IMG/VR virus record: IMGVR_UViG_3300033076_001357
Span: 1 to 64,000 of that record
Length of the DNA stretch: 64,000 bases
DNA from: a virus
Taxonomy: Duplodnaviria; Caudoviricetes
Strand: one strand, 5' to 3'
Shown here: positions 1,044-27,357 of the stretch, in pieces
How the letters are laid out: each line of letters opens with the position of its first letter
Position numbering within the stretch: position 1 is the first letter of the stretch
Position numbers and translations under genes: made by a program
Notes under the pieces: model-generated
What the model was told of the DNA's origin: nothing
Seen by the model: only the letters and a program-made list of their open reading frames with translations
Database searches by the model: none

Positions 1044-1517
1044 TCAGCCGACCAGGGCCAGGTCCCAGGCGACGCACGCCAGGTCCCACAGGCGTTGCGC
1101 CTCGGCGACGTCGCCGCGCGCCTCCGCGTGGTCCGCCTTACCGGCCAGCCAGTCACCGTGCTCCGCGTATTCACCGCTGGTCGCGGGAACCGTCGCGGGC
1201 TCCTCCAGCAACGCCAGCAGCTTGGCCGTCTCCTTCTCGGCGAGGTAGGCCAGGTGCGGCTTGGTGAAGCGCGGACGGCCCTTGCGCATCACCGTGAAGA
1301 AAACGATCCGGTCCAGACGGAACGACAGCTCCTCCTGCCGGGTCCGGCACCAGCCGGTCACCAGGTAGTGGCCGTCGCCGCTGACCCACAGGTCGGTGGG
1401 CTCCACGGTGCGCAGCTTCACGACGTCGGAGCCGCTCTTGCGGTACCCGATCCGGATCGGCTTGCGCTCCCCGATCGCCCGCGCCAGCGCCGTCAGCAGC
1501 TCGGTGGTCTCCGGCAT
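1044..1517 (-). CDS. Stand-alone WYL-domain protein
   Basis: IRIGYRK...RTVEPTDL...HYLVTGWCRTRQEELSFRLDRI matches the WYL pattern; AAGGAG RBS; no HTH. Confidence 0.85.
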   Translation of the reverse strand: MPETTELLTALARAIGERKPIRIGYRKSGSDVVKLRTVEPTDLWVSGDGHYLVTGWCRTRQEELSFRLDRIVFFTVMRKGRPRFTKPHLAYLAEKETAKLLALLEEPATVPATSGEYAEHGDWLAGKADHAEARGDVAEAQRLWDLACVAWDLALVG

Positions 1518-6480: not shown

Positions 6481-6657
6481 TCAGTCGACCTTGGTGACGC
6501 TGGACGGGTGCCAGATGTCACGTCGGGCGAACGGCGCGTTACGCTTCGCTGACTCGTCGTCGAGGATGATCTCGACGCCAAGGTCAGTGTCGGACTCGAC
6601 CACGCCCGACAACCGGCCCTCATCGATGTGAGCTTTGTCACCCTTGGTGAACTTCAC
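6481..6657 (-). CDS. Small SH3/KOW-like protein VKFTKGDKAHID...
   Basis: CAGGAGG RBS, GTG start, under promoter P11. Confidence 0.6.
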   Translation of the reverse strand: MKFTKGDKAHIDEGRLSGVVESDTDLGVEIILDDESAKRNAPFARRDIWHPSSVTKVD

Positions 6658-6686
6658 GGGGGTCCTCCTGTGTCTCTGGTACCGCC

Positions 6687-6716
6687 ATTCTAGCACAACG
6701 GTTTCCCGCCGGGAAA
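6687..6716 (-). promoter_or_regulatory. Promoter P11 (TTTCCC-18-TAGAAT)
   Basis: Consensus spacer (GAAAC, TG) and -10. Confidence 0.65.
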
Positions 6717-6893
6717 ATGGCTTCAAGGCGGGTCCTCCGCGCCCGGGCCACGGGCTCGGGAAAGCGCCGCAGGCCCGGTTGACGGCAGACACGGACCCGA
6801 GGGCCGGGACGGGGTCTTCCGCCGCCTGAGAGAGCCGCCCCGGTACTGAGCGCCGGAGACCCCCTGTACGGTTGAGGAAGACCCCGTCCTGTG

Positions 6894-8288
6894 TCACGAC
6901 GGGGTATCCCAGGACAGCGGCGTCCTGGTCCGGTACTCCAGAGACTCTATCTGCAGCCACAGGTGGCCGGTTCGCGGCTTCAGCTGAAGCGTCATCCGGG
7001 CCCAGTTGGGCCGTTCCAGCGACCCGACCCCGCTGAACTCGGCGCTCCGGGCGGTTCGTGGCAGCGTCCACTTCAGACCCTCGCCCGTTTCCTCGGCTGC
7101 GGCCACCGCTCGCCTCACCAGCCGCCACGCGGTCTCGGTCTCGACCCCCTGGTCCTGCAGCCAGGTCAGCGCCGCCGCAGCTTCGGCTCGGTTCCTGGCC
7201 GTCTCCAGGTTCCGCTCCATCGCCTCCTTGTCTATTCCCATCTGCCGTATCAGGTTGGTACACTTGATGGCGGCCCACTGTGCCAGGGTTGTTGCGGTCG
7301 GCACCACCACTCGCTCCACCGAGCTGTGGCTTATGTCCCGTTCACCCCACAACACCACCCCACTTTGCACAGTTGACCCCATTCCCTTTACTATGTTATA
7401 CAGCCCTATCATTTGCTCTGCGGTTACAGGGTTTGACTTATGGGGCATCGAGCTTGAGCCCCATTGACTGCACTGGTCGAAGTTTTCCCTTATTTCGTCG
7501 ATGCCGCTCTGGGCTCCCAGCCTCACCTCGTTGGCCACCGCTGCCGCTGCCGCCGCCACGCCCTCGCAGCCCCACACCATCTCGGCCACCAGGTCCCGGC
7601 TCACCACCTGCAGGCTGCTGTCCGCCGCCCTCATCCCCAGCAGCTTGGCGAATTCCAGCTCTTCCCCCCGGCTTATTCTCTTGTAGTCTCCCACCGGTCC
7701 GCTGAGCTTCACCCTCCCCACTTCCCTTGTCGCCCGTGCAAGGCGCTGGGTCGCCCTCTCGGCCATCAGCGCCTTGTCCGCCAGCCAGTGGCCCAGCGTC
7801 GACTCCTCCGCCCACTGGCCGTGGGTCCGGGCCACCCGCCGGGTCTCGCGGTTCTTCATCGCCGCCCTGGCCAGCTCCCCCGTCAGCTCCCACGCCGCCC
7901 GGGTCACCAGCTTCCCCGCCAGCCGCCACCTTATCGCGTTGGCGCTGTCCACCAGGTCGCTTGAGGTCATCCCCCGGTGCACCGCCGCCAGCGCCAGCGC
8001 CCCCGCGCGGCCTCCCCCCGCGCGGCCTCCCCCCGCGCGGCCTTCGGCCGCGAGGGCGATGTTCCTGCGCCAGCAGTTCAGGAACGCCACCACGTCGTGA
8101 CGGGTCCGGGCCTCCTCGTCGGCCACCTCCCGCTCGGTCGGCACCGCCGCCGTTCTCATCACTTCCAGCGCCTTCTCGTCCAGCCCCTGGGCCTGGGCCG
8201 CCGCCGTCTCCACCCTCGCCCACAGCCGGTACTGGGCTCGGGTCGACCACAGCTCTTCCATCTCGGACGTCTGGTACCTGGATATCAC
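6894..8288 (-). CDS. purB: Adenylosuccinate lyase (fumarase/ASL superfamily), phage-encoded
   Basis: MISRY..EM..LWS; TRHDVVAF; HRGMTSSD; RTHGQ; KLSGPVG; QVVSRD; GSSSMPHKSNP; ERDISHSSVER. Confidence 0.93.
   Translation of the reverse strand: MISRYQTSEMEELWSTRAQYRLWARVETAAAQAQGLDEKALEVMRTAAVPTEREVADEEARTRHDVVAFLNCWRRNIALAAEGRAGGGRAGGGRAGALALAAVHRGMTSSDLVDSANAIRWRLAGKLVTRAAWELTGELARAAMKNRETRRVARTHGQWAEESTLGHWLADKALMAERATQRLARATREVGRVKLSGPVGDYKRISRGEELEFAKLLGMRAADSSLQVVSRDLVAEMVWGCEGVAAAAAAVANEVRLGAQSGIDEIRENFDQCSQWGSSSMPHKSNPVTAEQMIGLYNIVKGMGSTVQSGVVLWGERDISHSSVERVVVPTATTLAQWAAIKCTNLIRQMGIDKEAMERNLETARNRAEAAAALTWLQDQGVETETAWRLVRRAVAAAEETGEGLKWTLPRTARSAEFSGVGSLERPNWARMTLQLKPRTGHLWLQIESLEYRTRTPLSWDTPS
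8001..8043. repeat. 15-bp tandem repeat (~3 units) inside purB encoding GRAGG repeats
   Basis: ccccgcgcggcctcc units; in frame. Confidence 0.8.
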
Positions 8289-8361
8289 AGTTTCCCTCTT
8301 CTCTTCTCTCTCCTGGCTACGCCGACGGCCCCGGGGTTCTCCCCCGGGGCCGTCGTCCTTC

Positions 8362-9291
8362 TCAGTTCCGGCCGCTGGATCCGAAGCCGTTGCTACCGCG
8401 CGGCTTGGGCCGCACCCGGCCCCACGCCGCCTTCCCCGCCCCCACGGCGGGCAGCAGCACCAGCTGCACCAGCCGGTCGCCCTCCTTCACCATGACGCCC
8501 GTCTTGGTGGGGTTGTGGACGCTGGCGAACAGCTCGCCGCTGTATCCTTCGTCGATCACTCCCGGCGTCACGTCCAGCCCGAGCTTGAACTTGGTGGAGC
8601 TGCGGCCGGTCACCAGCCCCCAGTACCCGTCGGGGATGTCCACCGCCACCCCGCAGTTGACGTAGGTGGTCTTGCCGGGGGGCAGCCACGTGTCCTTCGA
8701 CGTGAACAGGTCGAAGCCCGCGTCGGTCTCGTAGGCCCTCTCGGGCAGCCGGGCGTTCTCCGCCTTCTTCTCGAACACGATAGCGCCCCCGCGCGCGGGC
8801 TCGACCGCTTCCTTCAGCGCCCTGGCGAACGCGGTTCCCCGGTCGGCCGCCGTCGAGCCCCTGCGGGGCGCGGGCTCGGCCAGCTCCCGCACCGTGTCGC
8901 GCAGCCACTGCGCTCCCGACCGCACCCCGGGGCCGTCCAGCGGCACCTCGCGGAAGTTGTCGTTCATCTTCCAGTTGTCGATCAGCATGCTGACTTCCAG
9001 GTCGGTGGCCAGCGCCACCGGCTTACCGTTGTCCACGGCCCACTGGATCTCGATCGGCACGCCGATGCTGGGCACGCCATGCTTCAGCACCGCCATCACT
9101 CCGTCGGCCTCCCGCAGCGCCAGCCGGTTGATGGCCTGGCCGATACCGGCCGGGTCGCCGCCGCTGTCGAACGCCAGGGCGGGCCGGAACACCGTGGCTC
9201 CCGCCTCGACCAGCGTGGCGCTGGCCAGCTCGGCCATCCGCTTGGACCTCTCGTCGGCCTGGTCTATCGGCTGCGCCAGGTAGATCAACAT
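8362..9291 (-). CDS. dut: Fusion: NDT/DNPH1(Rcl)-like N-glycosidase plus trimeric dUTPase
   Basis: N-term IYLAQP...ADGV...SIGVPIEIQWA...SMLI; C-term AGFDL, GRSS, GVIDEGYSGE, GDRLVQL, RGSNGFGSSG; start at MLIYL with AAGGA RBS. Confidence 0.85.
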   Translation of the reverse strand: MLIYLAQPIDQADERSKRMAELASATLVEAGATVFRPALAFDSGGDPAGIGQAINRLALREADGVMAVLKHGVPSIGVPIEIQWAVDNGKPVALATDLEVSMLIDNWKMNDNFREVPLDGPGVRSGAQWLRDTVRELAEPAPRRGSTAADRGTAFARALKEAVEPARGGAIVFEKKAENARLPERAYETDAGFDLFTSKDTWLPPGKTTYVNCGVAVDIPDGYWGLVTGRSSTKFKLGLDVTPGVIDEGYSGELFASVHNPTKTGVMVKEGDRLVQLVLLPAVGAGKAAWGRVRPKPRGSNGFGSSGRN

Positions 9292-9368
9292 CGGTAACCG
9301 TCCTTTCGGCTCCCGCCTTCGGCGGGGGTGAGGGGGGCTCCCGCCTTCGGCGGCGGGAGCCGGGGGGG

Positions 9369-9809
9369 TCAGCGGGTCCGGGCGCCGACCGCGCCGACCA
9401 CGGCGGCCACCGCTTCGAAGGTGTGGTGCCACGCCTGGTCCAGGCAGTACGCGCCGTTCATCCCGTGGTCGGCGAGCCGGACGAACACGCCCTTGCCGGT
9501 CAGGTCGGCCAGCCTCTTCAGCGGCGTCCGCCGGTCGGCCACGTAGTGGGTCACCGCCGACAGCGCCAGCGCGGCGGTCAGCGCCCTACCGTTCAGCCGG
9601 ATCCCGCTGGCCCGGCTGGCGGCCATCAGCGCCACCGCCTGGGTGGCGGTGTAGCTGGCGACGTGGGCTGCGCACGCCTTCCGGCCGTCGCCGCCGTTGG
9701 TGCCCTTCACCCGGGCCTGCCGGTCGGTCTGGATCCAGTGGTCGGCCAGGTCGGCGGCCGTCCTGAGCGCCGCGTAGTTCAGCGCCGTCACTCCGGGTTC
9801 CACGGTCAT
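9369..9809 (-). CDS. DUF3307-like His-rich membrane protein
   Basis: ADHWIQTD.QA..KG; HVASYT; SAVTHYVADRR; DQAWHH. Confidence 0.7.
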   Translation of the reverse strand: MTVEPGVTALNYAALRTAADLADHWIQTDRQARVKGTNGGDGRKACAAHVASYTATQAVALMAASRASGIRLNGRALTAALALSAVTHYVADRRTPLKRLADLTGKGVFVRLADHGMNGAYCLDQAWHHTFEAVAAVVGAVGARTR

Positions 9810-9869
9810 CGTATCTCGTCCTTCGGGGGTCGGGGGCTGCCGCCGGGGCTTTCCCCCGCGACAACCCCC

Positions 9870-9899
9870 ATTGTACCACGGAAGTTCCCTACTGGGAAA
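9870..9899 (-). promoter_or_regulatory. Promoter P12 (TTTCCC-18-TACAAT) upstream of DUF3307-dut fusion-purB
   Basis: Consensus match. Confidence 0.65.
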
Positions 9900-10280
9900 C
9901 TAGCCCTCGTCGTCCGGCCAGCCGCCCGCCGCCCGGATCCGACGGCTCATCATCCCGTACGCGACCAGATCGGTCAGCGTGTCCTCCTTCGGCCGCTCCC
10001 CGCGCATCACCGCGTCGGTCCACCTCTCCATCTTCTGGACCGCGTTGATCCAGCAGCCCAGTTCCTGGGCCTCCTCGCTGCTGATCTCTTCCCGGCCGCT
10101 GAGCCGGGCGATCTTGCGGCCCAGCTGCTCCAGCGAGTTCGACCCGTAGGTGACCGCCTTCACGGCCACCATCCCGATGTCGTCGGTGGCCGTGCTCAGC
10201 CACCACTCGCGCAGCCCCTCGGCCCTCGCCGCGCGCGCGGCGAGGGCCTCACCGCTCAGCACCCATCTTTCGTGAGACAT
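9900..10280 (-). CDS. All-alpha NTP pyrophosphatase-like protein (MazG/MazZ/DUF1599-like)
   Basis: KAVTYG...QKMERW...EDTLTDLVAYGMM pattern; adjacent to purZ. Confidence 0.65.
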   Translation of the reverse strand: MSHERWVLSGEALAARAARAEGLREWWLSTATDDIGMVAVKAVTYGSNSLEQLGRKIARLSGREEISSEEAQELGCWINAVQKMERWTDAVMRGERPKEDTLTDLVAYGMMSRRIRAAGGWPDDEG

Positions 10281-10304
10281 CGTGTGACGCGTCCTCTCTC
10301 TGAT

Positions 10305-11432
10305 CTAGATGAACACTCCGGTCACCGGGCTGGTGCCGACGAACCGCACCCGGGCCCCGGTCTCGGTCTCCCGCTCGTCCAGCCACTCGGTGGCCCCTTC
10401 GCTCAGCTCCCGCAGCCCCCTGGCCCCCATGACCTCGGGGAACTGCTGGTCCAGCATGGTCACCGCCAGGTTGACCCTGCTGCCCCCGTTCGCCTGCACC
10501 GCCCGCCTCACCAGCTCGGAGTCCCAGGCGCCGACCCGCCGGACCTTCTGGGTAACTGTGGTGCGTTCCTCCTTCAGCCCCAGCTCCCCCCAGCTGGTCT
10601 CCCCCTTCATCGGCCCGCTGTTGCCCGCCACCCGGATCGGTCGGGTCCGGCACGCCAGCCACACCTCGAACTCTCCCACCGAGGGGTGCCAGGGGCTCAG
10701 TCCTGCCTGGGCCAGGAAGTCGATGGCACGGCAGTCGCCCGACGTGCTGTACGGGTACTCCCCAGCGTGCAGCCCCAGACCGAACCCCTGGGTGCCCTCG
10801 ATCAGCACCGTGGCTCCGTCCTCCAGCGCCCCGTACATCAGTCCGGCCGTGTCCGCCTCCCCCCGGACCACCTGGCCCCACAGCTTGGCCGTCCTCATCA
10901 CCCGGTCGGCCCGGGCCGCTCCGATCCCCTTGGCGGTGGACCCGAGACGGGCGGTCATCCCCAGCTCCCGCTCCTGGAGGACGTGCTTGTGGTCCAGCCA
11001 GGTGGCCTGACTGTCGACCGTCAGCCGCTCGGCGACCCGGTACCCGGCGCTGGACAGCGCCGCCAGCTCCTCGTTCAGCGTGTTGATGCTGACCTCGCTC
11101 CCGGCGGCGATCACCAGCCGGGCCGTCTCGTTGGCCACCGCCGCCACCGGCACCTGGCGAAGCTTCCACGGGTGGCCGATGAATTCGCCGTTGAAGTAGT
11201 GGTCGTCGACCGGCTCGCTTCCCCACAGTCCCTCGGCGGGGACGTGGCCGATCGCGGCCCCACACCACTTCGGGCACCGGCCGTGGACGATGTGGCCAGC
11301 GTTCGGGCCACCGACCCTCACTCCCACCGTCGCGCCGCTGACGCGGTCGGGGTTCAGCAGCTGGGCGCTGACGTGGCCCTTACCGCAGCTTCCGTACATC
11401 GCGTCGCTGACGACGATCAGCCTACCGGACAT
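10305..11432 (-). CDS. purZ: PurZ0-type N6-succino-2-amino-2'-deoxyadenylate synthase (PurA paralog)
   Basis: DAMYGSCGKG (Ser at the PurA catalytic Asp position), GPNAGH, GSTAKGIG, EGTQG, YPYSTS, RVAGNSGP, ERTTVTQKVRRVG, TMLD. Confidence 0.9.
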   Translation of the reverse strand: MSGRLIVVSDAMYGSCGKGHVSAQLLNPDRVSGATVGVRVGGPNAGHIVHGRCPKWCGAAIGHVPAEGLWGSEPVDDHYFNGEFIGHPWKLRQVPVAAVANETARLVIAAGSEVSINTLNEELAALSSAGYRVAERLTVDSQATWLDHKHVLQERELGMTARLGSTAKGIGAARADRVMRTAKLWGQVVRGEADTAGLMYGALEDGATVLIEGTQGFGLGLHAGEYPYSTSGDCRAIDFLAQAGLSPWHPSVGEFEVWLACRTRPIRVAGNSGPMKGETSWGELGLKEERTTVTQKVRRVGAWDSELVRRAVQANGGSRVNLAVTMLDQQFPEVMGARGLRELSEGATEWLDERETETGARVRFVGTSPVTGVFI

Positions 11433-11494
11433 TTTTCCTCTTTCCCGTTCTGTGGACGGCCCCCGGGTCCCGCCCGGGACCCGGGGGCGGGGGT

Positions 11495-11683
11495 TCAGCG
11501 GCCCTCGATCAGGGCCAGCGCCTCGGCGTCGTCGGCCGGGACCTGCAGGCCCCGGGGGGTCGGCTTGGTCGTCGGCCGGGGCCGGGGGGTCCCGGTGCGG
11601 GGCCGGGTCAGTGGCGGGTCGGTCTCGGTCCTCATCTCGGGTCCGGGGTCGGGTCCCGGCTTCCTTCCACCGAACAGCGTCAT
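11495..11683 (-). CDS. Small Pro/Thr-rich hypothetical protein
   Basis: GAGG RBS; first gene after promoter P13. Confidence 0.5.
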   Translation of the reverse strand: MTLFGGRKPGPDPGPEMRTETDPPLTRPRTGTPRPRPTTKPTPRGLQVPADDAEALALIEGR

Positions 11684-11713
11684 CGCGGCGGATCCTCTCT
11701 CCGTTGTTACTCC

Positions 11714-11743
11714 ATTATACCACCGGGCTTTCCCCCGGCGCAA
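11714..11743 (-). promoter_or_regulatory. Promoter P13 (TTGCGC-18-TATAAT) upstream of purZ
   Basis: Perfect -10 with TG extension. Confidence 0.8.
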
Positions 11744-12026
11744 GTGGCGCCCAGACCAGCTCGGTCGACCCCCCGTGGCCGTGGATGGCCACCACGTGGT
11801 CCACGGTCTCGAACATCACGGTGGTAGGAGTGTCGCTGAGCCACCTCATCACCACTGTACCGTCCGTGAACTCCACGCCCTCCGCCACCCGCCCGGTCCC
11901 GCTGACCCGGCTGACGTCGACCTTGCGGTCCAGGTAGAACAGCCGGGGCCTGGACCCCTCCGACCGCCCCACCGCCTGGTTCATCCGGTTCGCGTCGTCT
12001 TCCGACAGGATCTCGCTCATCCTCAC
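11715..12026 (-). CDS. Conserved actinophage hypothetical protein
   Basis: DVSRVSGTGRVAEGVEFTDG...W...IHGHGGST pattern. Confidence 0.75.
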   Translation of the reverse strand: MRMSEILSEDDANRMNQAVGRSEGSRPRLFYLDRKVDVSRVSGTGRVAEGVEFTDGTVVMRWLSDTPTTVMFETVDHVVAIHGHGGSTELVWAPLAPGESPVV

Positions 12027-12093
12027 CGCTTTCTGTTCCTCTCACACGCCCGGGCCCCCTCCGCCGTGACTGGCGGAGGGGGCCCGGTAGGGG

Positions 12094-12339
12094 TCAGTGG
12101 ATGCGTCCGGTGCGCTTCCACCGGTCCAGCGCTTCCACCGCGCGGTCCAGGTCCTCGATCATCAGATCGCAGTCCGGGTCGCTCCGGCAGCCGGGGTAGG
12201 TCTGCAGGGCCCGCTTGGCGGTGACCGCCCGGCCGATCACCGTCCGGACCTCGGCCAGCGCCCGGCTGGTCTGCCTTCCCCGGGGGTGGTCGGAGTCGAC
12301 CGGCTCCGGCTCCTCGTTATCGGCGTTGATCGTTACCAC
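12094..12339 (-). CDS. Hypothetical protein
   Basis: AAGGAAGGAG RBS, GTG start. Confidence 0.55.
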   Translation of the reverse strand: MVTINADNEEPEPVDSDHPRGRQTSRALAEVRTVIGRAVTAKRALQTYPGCRSDPDCDLMIEDLDRAVEALDRWKRTGRIH

Positions 12340-13733: not shown

Positions 13734-16034
13734 TCACTTGTCGGCGGACCAGCGCTCGGGCTCGATGCCGAAGTGCATGGTCCTTCCGCGCACTCCGAAG
13801 TACCGCTCGAACACCTCGTTGCCGATCGCGGACACCCGCTGGGCCTGGGCCCAGCCTTCCGGCGTGTCAGGGTGACGGGTCACCAGCGAGTCGTGGATCT
13901 GCAGCAGCAGGCATCCCGGCAGCTCCCGCTCGACCCGAGTCATCCAGGGGATCATCGCCCTGGCGAGGTTGCCCTGGATGACCTGGTTGACGGCACTGTT
14001 CGTCTTCTCGTTGACCGCGTACCACCGCCGCCAGCCGTCCAGCATCGTCAGGTAGCCGGGACCCCCCTGCCACCTGGTCACCTTCCACTCCGCCTGCTCC
14101 GCCATCACCTTGAATTCGGGGTAGGTGTCGAAGAAGTTGGCGATGGCCTCCCTGATCTCGTTCATCGACATCTTCTGGCCAGAGGCCGCCTCCACCTGCT
14201 CCTTGATGGCCATCACGCCGCCGCCGTACAGGATGCCGAAGGTGGCCCGCTTGGCCGCGTTCCTGAAGTCCTTGAAGAGCGGATGGCTCTCGTCGATCTT
14301 GAAGAACGCCTTCGTGTTCATCCCGTGCAGGTCGAGCCCGGCGTCCAGCGCGTCCCACAGCGACGTGACCCCCGCGATCACCGTCACCACCCGCAGCTCA
14401 CCGGTGGCCAGGTCGTGCTCCGCGTGGAAGTACCCCGGCTCGTTACCGATGAACGCTCGGACCGGCGTGGCCCCATCCGGGATCAGCCGACCGTGAGGTA
14501 TCGCCTGGCACTGCCAGCGACCCACCGCCAGCCGCCCCGACTTCGTGCCACCGGCGGCGTCCGAGGGACGGTCGAAGTCACCCTTGCACTGTTTGTACCG
14601 GGTCCTGATGCGACCGTCCCTACCGGTCCTCATCGCCCAGCCGGTGTACCACTTCGAGTCCGAGTTGCGGTTCTTGGTCCACCGCATCAGCTCGCTGGCC
14701 CACGGCACGCCGTCTTCCACCAGCCGCCTCAGTTCAACGATGTCGAGCCTGGGTTCCCTGGTCTTCTCGGTGCGGTCCAGCGGCTCCAGCCCCAGCCCGT
14801 TTTTACCCCCGCACTCCTCGCAGTCCCTGTCGCAGAAGAACACGCTCCAGTCACCGGCCGCCAGACTCCGGGCCCGGCTGCAGCCGGGCCCGAAGAAGAA
14901 CCTCTTGGCCTGGGCCAGCTTGGACGGATCGAACGGCATCTTCGCCGCCAGCTCGCGGTTGCGCTCCCGCAGCTTCCGCCCCTCGGCCAGCGAGGGCTCG
15001 ACGTCGTACCGCACCCCCCGGCGTTCCATCCGGTACAGGGTGGTACGCAGTTCCATCTCGTCGTCGTACAGCCTCCAGAAGTTCGGCAGCACCGCCCCCT
15101 CCTCCGCCAGCGCGTCCTGGTACTCGGCCAGCCGGAGGGTCAGGTTGGTGTCCTTGGCCGCGTACCGCTTCATCGCCGCCACGGGGTGCCACATCAGCAG
15201 GTCGTACCGCTTGGTCATCCGCACGCCGACCTTGGCCAGCTCCTTGGCCAGCTCCTGGGCCTCCGACCCCTCGTCCTCGCCCCACAGGCGCTTGGCCGTC
15301 TTCTTCAGCGCGGCCGGTTCCAGCGGGTCGATCAGCTGCTTCTGGACCACCAGGGTGCACCGGATCCGCCTCCGTACGTTACCGGGGACGGCCAGCGGCT
15401 CGCCGCTGGGCTCCATCATGTGGAGCCGCTGCGGCTCGCCCAGCCGCCAGGTGCCCGGCTCGCTGTCCGGGTCCCACGCCGCGAATCCCTCGGGCACGCC
15501 CGGGTCGCCACCGGCGCCCGCCCGGAGACCCGCCGCGAACATGGGCATGTCGTGGATGCTGTTGTGCATCACCAGGTTGTCCCGCCGGTCCAGCCAGCCG
15601 ATCAGCGCGGCGTAGTCGCTGGAGGGCAGGTTGACGACGTCCGCCGGGGTGAACGTGGTCCCCAGCAGCTTGGACATCGCCGCCAGGATGCGGGCCTGCT
15701 CCGTCTCGTCGATGACCGCGAAGGTGGCATGTCCGGTCTCGGGGTCGATGTCGGGCCGACCCGGCTTGCCGATCACCGGCCCCTGGTCGAACTGCCAGGC
15801 GTGGTCGGTAATCTCGCCCTCCACCCACCCCCCCTCATCGTCCGGAACCGGCTCGCGGTAGCTGACCGACACCACCGAGATCCTGGCCTCGGGCTGGGGA
15901 GGGTTGTTACCGCTCTTGAACGGCTCCCCGTCCCGGTACAGTCCGGACCCCTCGGTGTCCACGCTGACGAACCACCCGGGGGGCAGCTCCGGCAGCTCCA
16001 CGTCACCCACAACGGTAACGGGCAGCGTGCTCAT
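13734..16034 (-). CDS. polA: Family A DNA polymerase with 3'-5' exonuclease
   Basis: Exo VDTEG, HNSIHD, YAAKD; pol motif A HDLATGELR, motif B RNAAKRATFGILYGGG, motif C QIHDS. Confidence 0.92.
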   Translation of the reverse strand: MSTLPVTVVGDVELPELPPGWFVSVDTEGSGLYRDGEPFKSGNNPPQPEARISVVSVSYREPVPDDEGGWVEGEITDHAWQFDQGPVIGKPGRPDIDPETGHATFAVIDETEQARILAAMSKLLGTTFTPADVVNLPSSDYAALIGWLDRRDNLVMHNSIHDMPMFAAGLRAGAGGDPGVPEGFAAWDPDSEPGTWRLGEPQRLHMMEPSGEPLAVPGNVRRRIRCTLVVQKQLIDPLEPAALKKTAKRLWGEDEGSEAQELAKELAKVGVRMTKRYDLLMWHPVAAMKRYAAKDTNLTLRLAEYQDALAEEGAVLPNFWRLYDDEMELRTTLYRMERRGVRYDVEPSLAEGRKLRERNRELAAKMPFDPSKLAQAKRFFFGPGCSRARSLAAGDWSVFFCDRDCEECGGKNGLGLEPLDRTEKTREPRLDIVELRRLVEDGVPWASELMRWTKNRNSDSKWYTGWAMRTGRDGRIRTRYKQCKGDFDRPSDAAGGTKSGRLAVGRWQCQAIPHGRLIPDGATPVRAFIGNEPGYFHAEHDLATGELRVVTVIAGVTSLWDALDAGLDLHGMNTKAFFKIDESHPLFKDFRNAAKRATFGILYGGGVMAIKEQVEAASGQKMSMNEIREAIANFFDTYPEFKVMAEQAEWKVTRWQGGPGYLTMLDGWRRWYAVNEKTNSAVNQVIQGNLARAMIPWMTRVERELPGCLLLQIHDSLVTRHPDTPEGWAQAQRVSAIGNEVFERYFGVRGRTMHFGIEPERWSADK

Positions 16035-19139: not shown

Positions 19140-20972
19140 TTACCGCCAAAACTTCGAGAAGTCGGCCAGGTGCCCGCTCATCGGGTTGGCGCTCCAGGCG
19201 ATGGACCGCGCCCTGTCGTCCGAGATGATCACCCGTCCGTCGTCCTCCACGGTACGGACCAGCCGACCCACCCCCTGGACCAGCTGCTGTATCATGTCGT
19301 CCAGGTACACCTGGTACCCGAACCGGTTCTGGACCGCCCTGGTCTCCAGCGTGGGAACCCCGTAGGGGAGCTTCCACAGCACCACCTGGCGGAGCGCCGG
19401 ACCGGGGACGTCCACACCGGTCCACAGGCCCCGGGTACCGACCAGCACCGCGTGACCGTGAGCCGCGAACTCGGCCAGCATCTCCGCCGTGTCCGCCGCG
19501 TCCGTCCGGTGCTGCGTGAGCACCGGGATGCCGGAGGGCAGGTTGGCCGCCAGGAACCCCGCGACCAGGTCCAGGTCACGCCACGAGGTGGTCAGCACCA
19601 GCGTCCCCCCGCCGCCCTGGTCGTGAGAACGGGACGCCATGTCCACGACCGCCCCCTTCAGCTCCGTGAGCCGGGGAAGCTCGTGGTCCCGGATCTTCGG
19701 GCTGAAGGAGGACACCGCCAGGACGCTCCTGGAGTAATCGAACGGCGTACCCACGTCCTGGAACGCGGTCTGCGAGGACCGGGAACCGGTCAGCCGCCGG
19801 GCCAGGCTGGGCGGCACCGTACCCGAGATCAGCACGCTGGGCTGGCCCGACAGGATCGGCCACACCGTACCCGACGCGTCGATGCACAGCCGGTTCAGGT
19901 ACGGCTTGAGACCGCCCGGGTACATGTCGTCCGGCTCCACCACGATGGAGCTGACGAAGTCGCCCCCGCCCCCGTCGCCGTCGCCGACAGGCGACGGCGA
20001 CGAGAAGTCCACGAACCGGTCCAGAGCCTTGATCCGCTTCTTCAGCGTCTTCTTCAGCGCCGGGTCGCCCAGGGCGACCACCTGGTCCAGCTCCCGGCCG
20101 AGCTGCTGAGACAGGGCCACGGCCTCCTGGCGCATCTGCCGCAGCTCCGGATCGTCCGGGTCGACCGCAGCCTCCCGCTGGTCCGACGACAGGCACGCCT
20201 CGGTGACCTGCCGCATCACCCACTTCCGCAGGTCCGGGACCTCCTCGTACACCTTCGCGTTGGGCCCCATACGGTCCGACAGGCACCCCCGGGCCACCGC
20301 GTCCAGCTCGTGGCACTCGTCGACGAACAGCGCCCCGTAGTGGGGCAGCAGCCGCGACGACCCGGCGGTGAAACCCTGAACCAGCTGGTCCCACACCAGA
20401 AGGTGGCCGTTGGTGACCACCACGTCCGCCGTGGACGCCCGCTTGCGGGCCAGCTGGACCCCGCAGGTATGCTCCTCGTTCTCACAGTCGCCCGAGCACC
20501 CGAACGATTCGTCCAGGCCAGGGTGCTGCGCCCACTCCAGCGCACCGTCGGCGGTCAGCTCCCGGAACCGCTTCGCCGCCTCACGCCCGAACCTGGTCTC
20601 GAACCCGAAGGAGTCCGAGCACAGATACCGCCCCCTTCCCTTCAGGTACTGGATGTCCGCGCCCGAGGCGGCGGCGATACGCGGGGCGTCCTTCACCACG
20701 TACTGGTCGATCAGCCGGTTGGTGGGACACACCACCACCGAGGGCCGGTCGGTGACACGCCGGGCCTCGATGGCCGTGGACAGCGCGGCGAACGACTTTC
20801 CCACGCCGGTACCGGCCTGGACGAACTGGACACGGTCGCGGGCCACCGCGTCGCGGGCGAGATCGACCAGCTGCTGCTGCTGGACGCGAGGGGCCAGACC
20901 GAGCTGGGCCATCGCCTGCTCGAACACCCGCTGGTGCTCGGCTGACGAGGCGTCGGCATCGAACCTGAGCAT
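19140..20972 (-). CDS. DinG/YoaA-like SF2 helicase
   Basis: AGTGVGKS Walker A; VDECH; Cys cluster (CSD..CSGDC..C); ISGT; LWTGVDVPG; QGVGRLVR. Confidence 0.88.
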   Translation of the reverse strand: MLRFDADASSAEHQRVFEQAMAQLGLAPRVQQQQLVDLARDAVARDRVQFVQAGTGVGKSFAALSTAIEARRVTDRPSVVVCPTNRLIDQYVVKDAPRIAAASGADIQYLKGRGRYLCSDSFGFETRFGREAAKRFRELTADGALEWAQHPGLDESFGCSGDCENEEHTCGVQLARKRASTADVVVTNGHLLVWDQLVQGFTAGSSRLLPHYGALFVDECHELDAVARGCLSDRMGPNAKVYEEVPDLRKWVMRQVTEACLSSDQREAAVDPDDPELRQMRQEAVALSQQLGRELDQVVALGDPALKKTLKKRIKALDRFVDFSSPSPVGDGDGGGGDFVSSIVVEPDDMYPGGLKPYLNRLCIDASGTVWPILSGQPSVLISGTVPPSLARRLTGSRSSQTAFQDVGTPFDYSRSVLAVSSFSPKIRDHELPRLTELKGAVVDMASRSHDQGGGGTLVLTTSWRDLDLVAGFLAANLPSGIPVLTQHRTDAADTAEMLAEFAAHGHAVLVGTRGLWTGVDVPGPALRQVVLWKLPYGVPTLETRAVQNRFGYQVYLDDMIQQLVQGVGRLVRTVEDDGRVIISDDRARSIAWSANPMSGHLADFSKFWR

Positions 20973-22073: not shown

Positions 22074-24803
22074 CTACTCCGTGGCGCGGTCCCGGATCAT
22101 CTGTGAGTACTTGATGGGGATCTCCCGGTACCGCAGCCTGCCGCCGTCCGACAACCTGACCGGCTTACCGCTTCCCGAACAGCCGATGTTGGTGAGTTCG
22201 GACTGGATGGCGTCCTCGCTGGTCAGCGACTCGGTGCGGGAGTCGCGTTCCTTGCGGTCCTTCCAGCAGTCGGCCATCCTGGACACGTTCACCCAGAACG
22301 TCTCGGTCACCGCGTCCCAGAACACCGGCACGTTGACACCCGGGCTGGTCTTACGGTTGGTGACGTCGTTCATCCGGGTCTCGGGGAACAGGTGGGACCG
22401 CCACAGGGTCGGGATCATCTGCAGCACCACCACGCTGGCGTTGCCGAGGTCCTCCTGGTCCCCGATCCAGTTGCGCACCCGGTCGACGTGGAACCCGTCA
22501 CCGGTGAGCTTGTCCAGCACCATGGCCCCCATCAGTATCAGGCTGTCGGTCTGGGACCTGCGGGACGAGGTCTTGTTCAGCCCCTTGAGCTGGCTCAGCA
22601 TCGGGGCCAGTTCGATGATACCCGCCACCAGCGAACCCGCGATCTGGGTGTAGTCGCGGTTGAACCTGCCGAACCACAGTTCCTGGACGTCGTCCCACTG
22701 GGGTCGGGTGGGGTCCTTGAAAGACATCCGTCCCTTGGGGTCGGGGAAGTGCACCGCCACCATGCGGTCGCGGTTGGCCTTCTGGCTGTTGAAGAAGGTT
22801 CCCAGGCCTTCGGACGAGATGGCGGCGCTGGCCCGGAACCTGGTCACCTGCAGCTTGGACAGGTCGGACACGTCCCGGTTGGTGGCGTCGCCCCCCGTCG
22901 CCGCCTGCCGCAACAGCTCCTGGATGTCACCGGCCAGCCCGTCGCAGTCGTCGAACCACACGATGCCGGACGCGTTGGCGCCCAGCGCGGTCCTGGCCGT
23001 GGCCTTGGTCCAGCCGCCGCCCGTGCCGGTGTGCCCGACCAGCGAGAACACCTGCTCCAGAAACTTGGACTTACCGGACTCGGCGGTCCCGTCCACCTTC
23101 AGGATGGGAAACACCGGCAGGTTCAGGTGACCGCGCAGCACGGACATCACAGCCCAGGACCCGACCACGGAGGCCGCTGTCTCGTCGTGGAAGGTCAGCA
23201 CCTCCCGGAACACGTCGACAGCGCCCCTGACGCCGACGACGGACCCGTACCGGCTGCGGGAGTGCTCAATGGCGAACTTGGTGGGGCGAACCTTGGTGAA
23301 GGGCTCGATGGCGGACAGCCCCGGGGTGATTACCCCCTGGTCCGCCACGAACACCCCAGCCTTCTCGTTCCACCCAAGGTGGCTGACGATCTCGCACCGG
23401 GGCGGGTTCTGCGACATCAGCAGAGCCTGCATCCGGGTACCAGCGTCTCCCTTGTCGGTATTGTTGGGGTTGTTGTACCGCAGCAGGCCGCCGTGGCCCA
23501 TGACCCACCGTTTCAGAGCGGCGTTGTTGGCGAGAACGTCGGAGGTGATCTCCCGGTCCCGCTTGACTGTGCCGTCCTTGGTGATGAAATCCACGATCCA
23601 GGTGATGACCCCGTCGTCCTCGTAGACGCTGGTGGCCCGCAGCTTGAAATCGCTGAATACTGCGGTGAGGGCCTTGTGCTGCCTACCCTCTTCGTCGACG
23701 TACGATTCTCTGATCAACGCCTCGTATCCAAACTCCTCGATGCGGTCACGAAGGTGACCGTTGTCTTCAGAGAAGTCCAGAACAACGCTGCTGTCAACCT
23801 TGACGGGGCCGGACGGCACCTCCACCACCGTACCCAGCCGGGTAGACGCGGCCAGGTTGAGGTGGGCCACGGCCTTCCGGTCGGGGTGGTTCTTCCGCTC
23901 CAGCTTGAAGATGGACCCCCACGTCGCCTCAAGGCGGGAGGACTCGTGGGGCTGGTCGGACATCATGTCTACCGCCCGGACGAACCCGATGGCCTCGTCC
24001 TCCTGGAGAAGCCCGGCGGCCACGGAGGGGGCCAGCATCCCGCAGATCCGGGCCAGCCAGTCGTTCCCCCGGTCCGGGTCGTCCGACATCAGCTCCAGCA
24101 GAGCCTTCTTGGACCGGCTGGAACCGTCGGCGGACGACCGGCCGGTCTTGGCGGCGACCAGAGACCACGCCTCGGGGTTGTCCACCCACAGGTCGGGGAG
24201 GAAAGTAAGGTCGTCGGCTCGCGGGGGCGCGCTGGCCTCCTCCCCCTCCGGGGTGAACCACTGGTACCGCAGGCCGTCCTCGTCGATCACGGAGGGCCAC
24301 ACCACCGAGTACCGGTGGCTGAACTGGATGACGTCGATGTCGGTAGCGGCCTTGGTGGGCCACTGCCTGCCGGGGGGAACCCGGTAGAACCTGATGCGGG
24401 AGTCGCCCCACCCCCGGCGGGTCGACGACCAGGTGGGCGGCAGGGGGCACACCCTGGCCTCCAGCTCGGCCAGCTGGTCCGCGCCCCGTTTGGCGCCGTA
24501 GTGATCGACGTCGATTCCGACGACCCCGTCGGGGAGGCGCAGTCCGATGTTGCCGGACCAGGTGGCCACGTCTCCGGCGGCAGGCCAGCGCCCGTCGTAT
24601 CCGGTGTACCCGTTGGGGGGCGGGGACTTCTTGCCCGAGGGAAGTACGATGGTTCCGGACCAGCCCGCCTGTCGGTACAGGTCGGCCGCTCGCTGGAACG
24701 GGGTTTGCTCTTCAGGCACCTCTGTGTTAGACTCGGAGCGGGTGATCGGATGGTCAGGGCCCAGCGGAGGACGGATCCGCTGGGCCTCATTCATTTCTGT
24801 CAT
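22074..24803 (-). CDS. Bifunctional primase-polymerase (prim-pol) fused to P-loop helicase-like domain
   Basis: KKSPP, GNIGLRL..GVVGIDVD, TWSSTRRG, RFYRVP; C-terminal GTAESGKS, VWFDD. Confidence 0.85.
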   Translation of the reverse strand: MTEMNEAQRIRPPLGPDHPITRSESNTEVPEEQTPFQRAADLYRQAGWSGTIVLPSGKKSPPPNGYTGYDGRWPAAGDVATWSGNIGLRLPDGVVGIDVDHYGAKRGADQLAELEARVCPLPPTWSSTRRGWGDSRIRFYRVPPGRQWPTKAATDIDVIQFSHRYSVVWPSVIDEDGLRYQWFTPEGEEASAPPRADDLTFLPDLWVDNPEAWSLVAAKTGRSSADGSSRSKKALLELMSDDPDRGNDWLARICGMLAPSVAAGLLQEDEAIGFVRAVDMMSDQPHESSRLEATWGSIFKLERKNHPDRKAVAHLNLAASTRLGTVVEVPSGPVKVDSSVVLDFSEDNGHLRDRIEEFGYEALIRESYVDEEGRQHKALTAVFSDFKLRATSVYEDDGVITWIVDFITKDGTVKRDREITSDVLANNAALKRWVMGHGGLLRYNNPNNTDKGDAGTRMQALLMSQNPPRCEIVSHLGWNEKAGVFVADQGVITPGLSAIEPFTKVRPTKFAIEHSRSRYGSVVGVRGAVDVFREVLTFHDETAASVVGSWAVMSVLRGHLNLPVFPILKVDGTAESGKSKFLEQVFSLVGHTGTGGGWTKATARTALGANASGIVWFDDCDGLAGDIQELLRQAATGGDATNRDVSDLSKLQVTRFRASAAISSEGLGTFFNSQKANRDRMVAVHFPDPKGRMSFKDPTRPQWDDVQELWFGRFNRDYTQIAGSLVAGIIELAPMLSQLKGLNKTSSRRSQTDSLILMGAMVLDKLTGDGFHVDRVRNWIGDQEDLGNASVVVLQMIPTLWRSHLFPETRMNDVTNRKTSPGVNVPVFWDAVTETFWVNVSRMADCWKDRKERDSRTESLTSEDAIQSELTNIGCSGSGKPVRLSDGGRLRYREIPIKYSQMIRDRATE

Positions 24804-27075: not shown

Positions 27076-27143
27076 GCGGTTCCTTCGGGTTGTGTGCGTG
27101 GTGACCTGATGCTGACCGGCGGGCCGAACGGCTCCCGGTAGCG

Positions 27144-27215
27144 TGCCACCAACAGGACTCGAACCTGTGCCTCGGCTGTTTCAGAGCCGCGCTCTACCAA
27201 CTGAGCTATGGTGGC
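27144..27215 (-). tRNA. tRNA-Phe(GAA), no encoded CCA
   Basis: GCCACCA/TGGTGGC acceptor, GCTC/GAGC D arm, CGGCT-CTGAAAC-AGCCG anticodon arm, CAGG-TTCGAGT-CCTG T arm. Confidence 0.92.
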
Positions 27216-27224
27216 GGATGGAAA

Positions 27225-27267
27225 GCGGCAGTTATCGCCGCGCCACTCCGCAAACGATAACTGCCGC
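27225..27267. other. 13-bp perfect hairpin between tRNA-like genes
   Basis: gcggcagttatcg / cgataactgccgc. Confidence 0.7.
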
Positions 27268-27269
27268 AG

Positions 27270-27357
27270 TGTGCCGGACGGGAATCGAACCCGCATCTGT
27301 GAGTGTCTCAGCCAGGTCCTACCTCTGGCTTCACCGTCTTACTTAGACCACCGGCAC
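27270..27357 (-). ncRNA. Atypical tRNA-like RNA (anticodon ambiguous; could be degenerate Leu-TAG)
   Basis: GTGCCGG/CCGGCAC acceptor, GTCT/AGAC D arm, GCGGG-TTCGATT-CCCGT T arm; middle AGCCAG-AGGTAGGAC-CTGGCT lacks a canonical 7-nt U33 loop. Confidence 0.7.

Follow-up and report, generated by a model that had tools for sequence, protein, structure and literature searches.

A predicted DmtZ-DutZ fusion enzyme in the PurZ0 module of an uncultivated 85-kb actinophage

The gene described here lies in a 64,000-nucleotide stretch (the window) of a viral record in IMG/VR (85,119 bp, estimated completeness 92%). Its product is very probably a bifunctional enzyme of the DmtZ-DutZ type, belonging to a PurZ0-type phage that has 2-aminoadenine (Z) in place of A in its DNA; all of the activities are read across from homologues at 33-54% identity. 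The domain architecture, the fold, the conserved catalytic and specificity residues, the clade, the gene context and the absence of DatZ- and MazZ-type genes were established in the present analysis. Judged by its sequence, the protein is a divergent further member of the DmtZ-DutZ family and belongs to a kind already known, because the mechanism and role of that family were published in 2026.

The name DmtZ-DutZ was introduced by Poubanne et al. (NAR, February 2026; PMC12884076) for a 307-aa protein of Arthrobacter phage Wayne in which NDT and Dut domains are fused. In Gordonia phage Ghobes the NDT-like protein and the Dut-like protein are separate; both were characterised in the same study and named DmtZ and DutZ. 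DutZ hydrolyses dATP, dGTP and dUTP to the dNMPs, DmtZ converts dAMP to adenine and also transfers deoxyribose-5-phosphate (dR5P) onto the Z base, and the full-length Wayne fusion takes dATP to adenine (PMC12884076). In the survey of PurZ0 genomes reported with these assays, dutZ was present in 98 of 98 and dmtZ in 85 of 98, the two being fused in 77 of those 85, and the replacement of DatZ in PurZ0 phages is a conclusion of that study itself (PMC12884076). A 2025 preprint likewise ties NDT and dUTPase to Wayne-like dZ phages (10.1101/2025.10.22.683976).

The fusion is encoded by one open reading frame of 309 codons followed by a TGA stop (Table 1), with a stop-free translation, in surroundings of about 72% GC where every gene lies on the minus strand. 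The start codon was assigned to the ATG at 9291, a start position common to all 84 aligned fusion homologues and preceded by a ribosome-binding site. A longer reading from a GTG at 9432, which runs into the upstream gene and two hairpins, was rejected because all 84 aligned homologues begin at the equivalent of ATG-9291; the extension is absent from every one of them. GC-rich hairpins lacking T-runs were observed on both sides of the gene, at 9308-9362 and 8325-8356 of the minus strand. On the 5' side a CGCCGAAGGCGGGAGCC unit is present twice and a 91-nt stretch folds with -46.7 kcal/mol (z -3.8), and the 3' hairpin has a perfect 13-bp stem, GACGGCCCCGGGG/CCCCGGGGCCGTC; these hairpins may act in termination, or in RNA stability or processing.

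Table 1. Positions of the fusion gene, its parts and the neighbouring module genes in the window
Feature	Position	Strand	Basis or remark
PrimPol	22074-24803	-	
Helicase	19140-20972	-	
Family A DNA polymerase (PolA)	13734-16034	-	28% identical to Wayne DNA polymerase I over the full length, E 1e-69
PurZ0-type 2-aminoadenylosuccinate synthetase	10305-11432	-	Ser at the PurA catalytic Asp position (GSCGKG)
126-aa all-alpha protein, P0093 family	9900-10280	-	Homology, model
146-aa predicted membrane protein, phrog_2470	9369-9809	-	PHROGs (E 7.5e-19)
Ribosome-binding site GAAAGGA	9301-9307	-	9 nt before the ATG
Predicted DmtZ-DutZ fusion, whole CDS, 309 aa	8362-9291	-	ORF, Pfam, alignment
DmtZ domain, residues 1-138, NDT/DNPH1 fold	8878-9291	-	Alignment, profile, model
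Linker, residues 139-169, Ala/Arg/Glu-rich, low pLDDT	8785-8877	-	Model
DutZ domain, residues 170-309, trimeric-type dUTPase fold, five motifs	8365-8784	-	Pfam, tree, model
PurB-like adenylosuccinate lyase, directly downstream of the fusion	6894-8288	-	

Comparison with Pfam placed a dUTPase domain (PF00692) at residues 179-307 with an E-value of 1.4e-25 and a Nuc_deoxyrib_tr domain (PF05014) at residues 3-109 with 25.5 bits, under the cut-off of 28.8, and PHROGs returned dUTPase (1.3e-41) and NDT (7.9e-07) for the same protein. All five dUTPase motifs that the preliminary description had assigned to the C-domain were read directly in the sequence (I-V: AGFDL, GRSS, GVIDEGYSGEL, GDRLVQL and RGSNGFGSSG), the N-domain motifs that it had quoted are present at residues 4-8 (YLAQP), 75-81 (SIGVPIE) and 101-104 (SMLI), and its assignment of an Rcl-like Ser pocket is borne out by the direct alignment of PSIGVPIE to PSLGVGYE of Rcl. 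The AlphaFold2 model, for which 79 homologues were used, reached a mean pLDDT of 89.3 and consists of two domains separated by a disordered linker at about residues 139-169; measured from W129 to P183, the spacer is 54 residues long, the family median being 32. Exhaustive structural comparison matched model residues 168-309 to human dUTPase (Z 19.7) and residues 1-138 to the NDT of Bacillus psychrosaccharolyticus (6evs; Z 15.0, rmsd 2.6, 127 aa), with further matches within the NDT superfamily to MilB (4ohr; Z 14.3), Enterococcus faecalis 7m5h (Z 13.9), the Desulfotalea NDT (Z 13.3) and RCL/DNPH1 (2khz; Z 12.4), the same PDB set as that listed for Wayne in PMC12884076. The C-domain has the trimeric-type dUTPase fold complete with motifs I-V and the N-domain the NDT/DNPH1 alpha/beta fold; NDT and dUTPase are the only folds in the protein, an HD phosphohydrolase domain being absent from it.

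The phylogenetic position of the dUTPase domain was assessed in a quick IQ-TREE analysis of 101 rows with few columns (141), which recovered a DutZ clade of 87 rows (SH-aLRT 99, stem 2.05) including the window protein, Wayne, Ghobes, Hiyaa, Keanu and Zanella. This clade takes in all of the fusions together with Ghobes DutZ and the Dut of Microbacterium phage Zanella, and the dUTPases of 7 non-Z phages fall outside it. Within it, the window domain sits on a deep or basal branch of five members with four uncultured sequences (54-57% identity). Four marker residues of the clade, derived in this analysis and not taken from PMC12884076 (found in at least 84% of 85 clade members and at most two of 14 outgroups), are W224, G229, T233 and L254, and the window protein carries all of them. 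In end-to-end alignment the fusion is 36% identical to Wayne, 43% to Keanu, 42% to Hiyaa and 34% to Ghobes DmtZ; homologues in cultured phages are only 35-39% identical to it. By domain, identity to the characterised enzymes is 33-37% for the N-domain, and the C-domain is 41% identical to Wayne DutZ, 48% to Ghobes DutZ and 54% to Keanu DutZ. A megablast search with the 4.7-kb module brought up no closely related phage genome.

The residues on which the published activities depend were located by alignment. The catalytic triad of the DmtZ domain, Y4/N55/E81, corresponds to Tyr6, Asn77 and Glu103 of Ghobes DmtZ and is kept in 83, 82 and 82 of the 84 fusions respectively; D10 corresponds to Asp12 (83/84) and P37 to Pro57, the Pro of transferase type (84/84). 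Together with G77, these residues are invariant among the DmtZ sequences of the window phage, Wayne, Keanu, Hiyaa and Ghobes and recur in 82-84 of the 84 fusions. In Ghobes DmtZ the substitutions Y6A, E103A, D12A and D12R abolished both dAMP hydrolase and transfer activity, with D12A retaining a trace of dGMP hydrolysis, N77D impaired activity and P57A lowered hydrolysis tenfold, and Asp12 was modelled as binding adenine N6 (PMC12884076); every residue mutagenised there, namely Y6, D12, P57, N77 and E103, has an equivalent in the window protein. The five canonical motifs, the true dUTPases found as the nearest solved structures to the C-domain and the gene's standing as the sole dUTPase-family gene of the record would also suit an ordinary dUTPase joined to a pyrimidine-directed, DNPH1-like N-glycosidase acting on dUMP or 5-hydroxymethyl-dUMP, in the service of uracil exclusion or thymidine modification and not of adenine removal, and dUTP is still the substrate on which the Wayne fusion reaches its highest kcat (PMC12884076). 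This reading is nevertheless very improbable: Asp10, whose Ghobes equivalent cannot be mutated without loss of dAMP activity, is kept, both characterised DmtZ enzymes were inactive, or nearly so, towards the other canonical dNMPs (PMC12884076), the C-domain falls inside the DutZ clade and the gene stands beside PurZ0.

The predicted 5'-phosphate pocket of the N-domain is uncharged (I9, Q11, S75, I76, G77 and S101), as opposed to the Asp/Asn of nucleoside NDTs. Ser75, six residues before the catalytic Glu, stands against an Asp in 8pqp (PSIGVPIE vs PPDEGVMVE), and Ser101 occupies what we take to be the position of the second 5'-OH contact of NDTs, an Asn, going by NDT and Rcl structures. The same pair of Ser residues is found in DNPH1/Rcl and DmtZ, the ligands of which carry a 5'-phosphate, and a nucleotide substrate fits the fusion to a pyrophosphatase that produces dNMPs; both points argue against an N-domain acting as a nucleoside 2'-deoxyribosyltransferase on dA (dA + Z -> dZ + A) in the manner of NDT-M2 of dZ metagenome contigs. 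Such an activity appears highly unlikely, although the top PDB matches of a six-sequence N-domain profile are nucleoside 2-deoxyribosyltransferases (8pqp, 1.3e-05, followed by MilB at 0.005 and DNPH1 at 0.045) and dA-preferring NDTs have been associated with dZ phages (10.1101/2025.10.22.683976).

The window protein departs from Ghobes DmtZ at the position of Trp124, which was proposed from a docking model to form an active-site lid contributed by the second monomer (PMC12884076); here it is Met102, and the modelled lid feature is lacking. Among the 84 fusions this position is occupied by W in 60, A in nine, V in six, M in four, Y in two, L in two and F in one, and the four nearest relatives of the window fusion carry W, Y, Y and A; the lid Trp is therefore no strict family feature. 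Because the modelled lid residue is Met, the fusion might be a hydrolase line only (dATP -> dAMP -> adenine) with little or no transfer of dR5P to Z, as would accord with the rarity of Met in place of Trp among the homologues, with the variability of the nearest relatives and with the sequence SAML in some family members, as in the pure hydrolase DNPH1. We consider this unlikely, given that the lid role of Trp124 comes from docking, that the transferase-shared Pro37 is retained and that the Trp-bearing DmtZ enzymes themselves gave only about 20% dR5P transfer in vitro (PMC12884076). Hydrolysis and transfer might also be balanced differently in the deep subclade of the window fusion, with its non-Trp lid.

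The gene order PrimPol, helicase, PolA, PurZ0, fusion and PurB resembles that of Wayne, Ghobes and the Hiyaa-like Streptomyces phages. In the PurZ0 of the window, the replacement of PurA Asp13 by Ser was read directly, and the protein is 55% identical to PurZ of Galactica, 46% to that of Ghobes and 42% to that of Wayne, against 26-30% for the Vibrio/Acinetobacter PurZ group. Four metagenomic contigs with a homologous fusion were sampled, and each of them has a PurA-like gene 1-4 kb upstream of it. Throughout the 85-kb record (92% complete), matches were found neither to the YfbR-like, HD_3 and HD domains of DatZ type nor to DUF550, DUF5664, MazG and DUF6378 (Pfam accessions without a match: PF12917, PF13023, PF01966, PF04447 and PF03819), the DUF5664 search having been validated on Wayne; the record holds a single dUTPase-family gene and a single PurA-like gene. 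With DatZ, DUF550, DUF5664 and MazG missing from the record and only one dUTPase-family gene in it, 'replacement for DatZ', the role proposed in the preliminary description, is therefore a fair description of the fusion, and its clade and gene context are those of the characterised homologues. The two-step dNTP to dNMP to free base line on adenine nucleotides, proposed at the same time, agrees with the assays of the Wayne fusion and the Ghobes pair (PMC12884076) and would extend to the window protein by homology. The accompanying proposal that dZ is spared holds only in part across the family, because Ghobes DmtZ hydrolyses dZMP as well (PMC12884076). Wayne and Ghobes, the two characterised homologues, thus already diverge in substrate preference, the Wayne kcat being highest on dUTP.

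Several further observations were made on the surroundings of the module. The phage PurB-like lyase carries, at about 7980-8051 (-), a 16-residue Gly/Arg/Ala-rich insertion with GRAGG repeats relative to Keanu PurB (40% identity). The sole sigma-70-like promoter match in 6500-12200 lies at 9898-9870 (-), with TTCCCA, 17 nt, TACAAT and an extended TG, between the gene for the 126-aa P0093-family protein and that for the 146-aa membrane protein; the latter separates the PurZ0-linked P0093 gene from the fusion. A tRNA-Phe(GAA) adjoining an 89-nt tRNA-Leu(TAG) was called by ARAGORN at 27143-27357 (-), and a 157-aa WYL-domain protein (E 1.5e-14) is encoded at 1044-1517 (-). In the closest uncultured relatives (the contigs of P0002 and P0009), genes for a GGDEF-domain protein and an Acb5-family protein lie upstream of purZ; on one of these two contigs purZ and the fusion are separated by a NUDIX gene, and on the other a Thy1 (ThyX) gene follows the fusion and precedes purB.

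Of the named systems, Wayne DmtZ-DutZ (ALY10777.1) shares with the window protein its domain order, length (307 vs 309 aa) and catalytic and specificity residues, as well as a position downstream of PurZ0 and PolA in a genome that, like the window phage, has neither DatZ nor MazZ; beyond the sequence divergence given above, it differs in its lid Trp, in a spacer of 37 residues (vs 54), and in an adjacent DUF5664 gene, the slot of which is taken by the P0093-family gene in the window phage, which also has its own PurB. Ghobes DmtZ (AOE44404.1) and DutZ (AOE44406.1) are homologous to the two window domains, and Ghobes likewise has a P0093-family gene straight after purZ0; the two enzymes are encoded by separate genes in Ghobes and by one fused polypeptide in the window. 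The closest cultured relatives are the Hiyaa-like Streptomyces phages Keanu, Hiyaa, Galactica and Spocter (38-39% by tblastn), with genomes of about 82 kb which, as in the window, encode PurB and the fusions of which are annotated as dUTPase only; the window dUTPase domain branches outside their subclade, and in these phages the P0093 domain forms the C-terminus of a 419-450-aa protein rather than a 126-aa protein. DNPH1/Rcl and MilB, dNMP/NMP N-glycosidases of the NDT superfamily, share with the window DmtZ domain the fold (Z 12.4-14.3), the Glu nucleophile, the Tyr and the Ser-x-Gly...Ser 5'-phosphate pocket and are not orthologues of it; DmtZ differs from them in a triad Asn instead of Asp and in keeping the transferase-type Pro, and by homology would also differ in being dAMP-specific through Asp10 and able to transfer dR5P to a base. 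The pair DatZ and MazZ/DUF550, known from phages of PurZ type including S-2L, phiVC8 and SH-Ab 15497, does the physiological job predicted for the fusion, the removal of dATP and supply of dGMP for the replacement of A by Z. However, the HD-domain triphosphohydrolase DatZ converts dATP to dA and triphosphate, whereas the route of the fusion would lead from dATP to dAMP and PPi and then to adenine; with folds and chemistry unrelated to those of DatZ and MazZ, the fusion would be a functional analogue and not a member of DatZ.

In the mechanism proposed for the window protein, the DutZ domain would convert dATP to dAMP and PPi, with dGTP and dUTP as further substrates, and Glu81 of the DmtZ domain would then attack C1' of dAMP with release of adenine. 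The resulting covalent deoxyribosyl-5-phosphate intermediate would then react with water to yield dR5P or with 2,6-diaminopurine to yield dZMP. Together the two domains would remove dATP, so that the phage polymerase uses dZTP, while feeding dGMP to PurZ0 and salvaging the Z base, and would in this way fill the role played in PurZ-type phages by DatZ and MazZ together.

The 126-aa protein encoded next to purZ0 defines a family (P0093) that goes unmentioned in PMC12884076. Its homologues include Ghobes gp51 (E 5e-18), Zanella gp53 (E 2e-19) and, in Keanu gp66, the last 100 residues (E 1e-27), and comparison by hhalign with the gene following PurZ on a JGI contig gave a probability of 99.3%. By tblastn, the family occurs in exactly 31 of 50,697 phage records (Microbacterium 18, Gordonia 6, Streptomyces 5, Curtobacterium 1, Micrococcus 1), and the counts per genus equal those of the PurZ search for non-Arthrobacter actinophages; the Arthrobacter PurZ0 phages among these records gave no hit, and the P0093 profile has no match in Wayne, whose slot holds DUF5664-1. 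In the gene orders examined it lies directly after purZ0 in Ghobes, Keanu, Hiyaa, Zanella and metagenomic contigs. Among 1.84 billion metagenome representatives, a profile search returned 930 relatives in which the domain, of about 105 residues, is usually C-terminal, with no informative Pfam domain in the N-terminal parts of the longer ones. In one relative of 485 aa (P0132), a P0093-family domain at residues 381-484 is joined in frame to a homologue of PurZ0 that shares 46% identity with the window PurZ; fusions of this type are found on two contigs (L022:794-2251 and L023:767-2224), with a stand-alone dUTPase two genes downstream. Because of this distribution, the adjacency to purZ0 and the natural fusion, the P0093 protein is argued to work with PurZ0.

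As to what the protein is, the model is a four-helix, all-alpha structure (pLDDT 88.4) for which Foldseek returned nothing from the PDB at E <= 0.001 and for which the best VIA score, Z 6.5, is not meaningful for a helical protein; Pfam, PHROGs and PDB profiles gave no match to the 126-aa sequence. A relationship to DUF5664/MazG was considered and is unsupported, BLASTP and hhalign against Wayne gp51 having given nothing. A weak tail of BFVD matches (E 0.05-0.7) contains DUF6378 and 'nucleotide modification associated domain 1' (Nmad1-type) phage proteins, and one language-model match falls in a cluster with 14% DUF1599. We tentatively suggest that the protein could be a fourth, undescribed component of the PurZ0 module, either a subunit or regulator of PurZ0 or a nucleotide pyrophosphatase, very far diverged, that takes the place of DUF5664-1, a possibility to which we give somewhat less than even weight; if true, the complex in which DmtZ-DutZ operates would be larger than the published one.

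Taken by homology, the uncultivated 85-kb actinophage would be of PurZ0 type and clear its adenine nucleotides through a dUTPase-derived pyrophosphatase fused to a DNPH1-like glycosidase, not through DatZ. The published family therefore extends to a deeper and more divergent branch. The natural variation at the putative lid residue helps in dissecting dAMP hydrolysis from deoxyribose-5-phosphate transfer within one active site and is also useful for engineering the production of Z-DNA. The more original lead is the unannotated, PurZ0-linked P0093 family next door.
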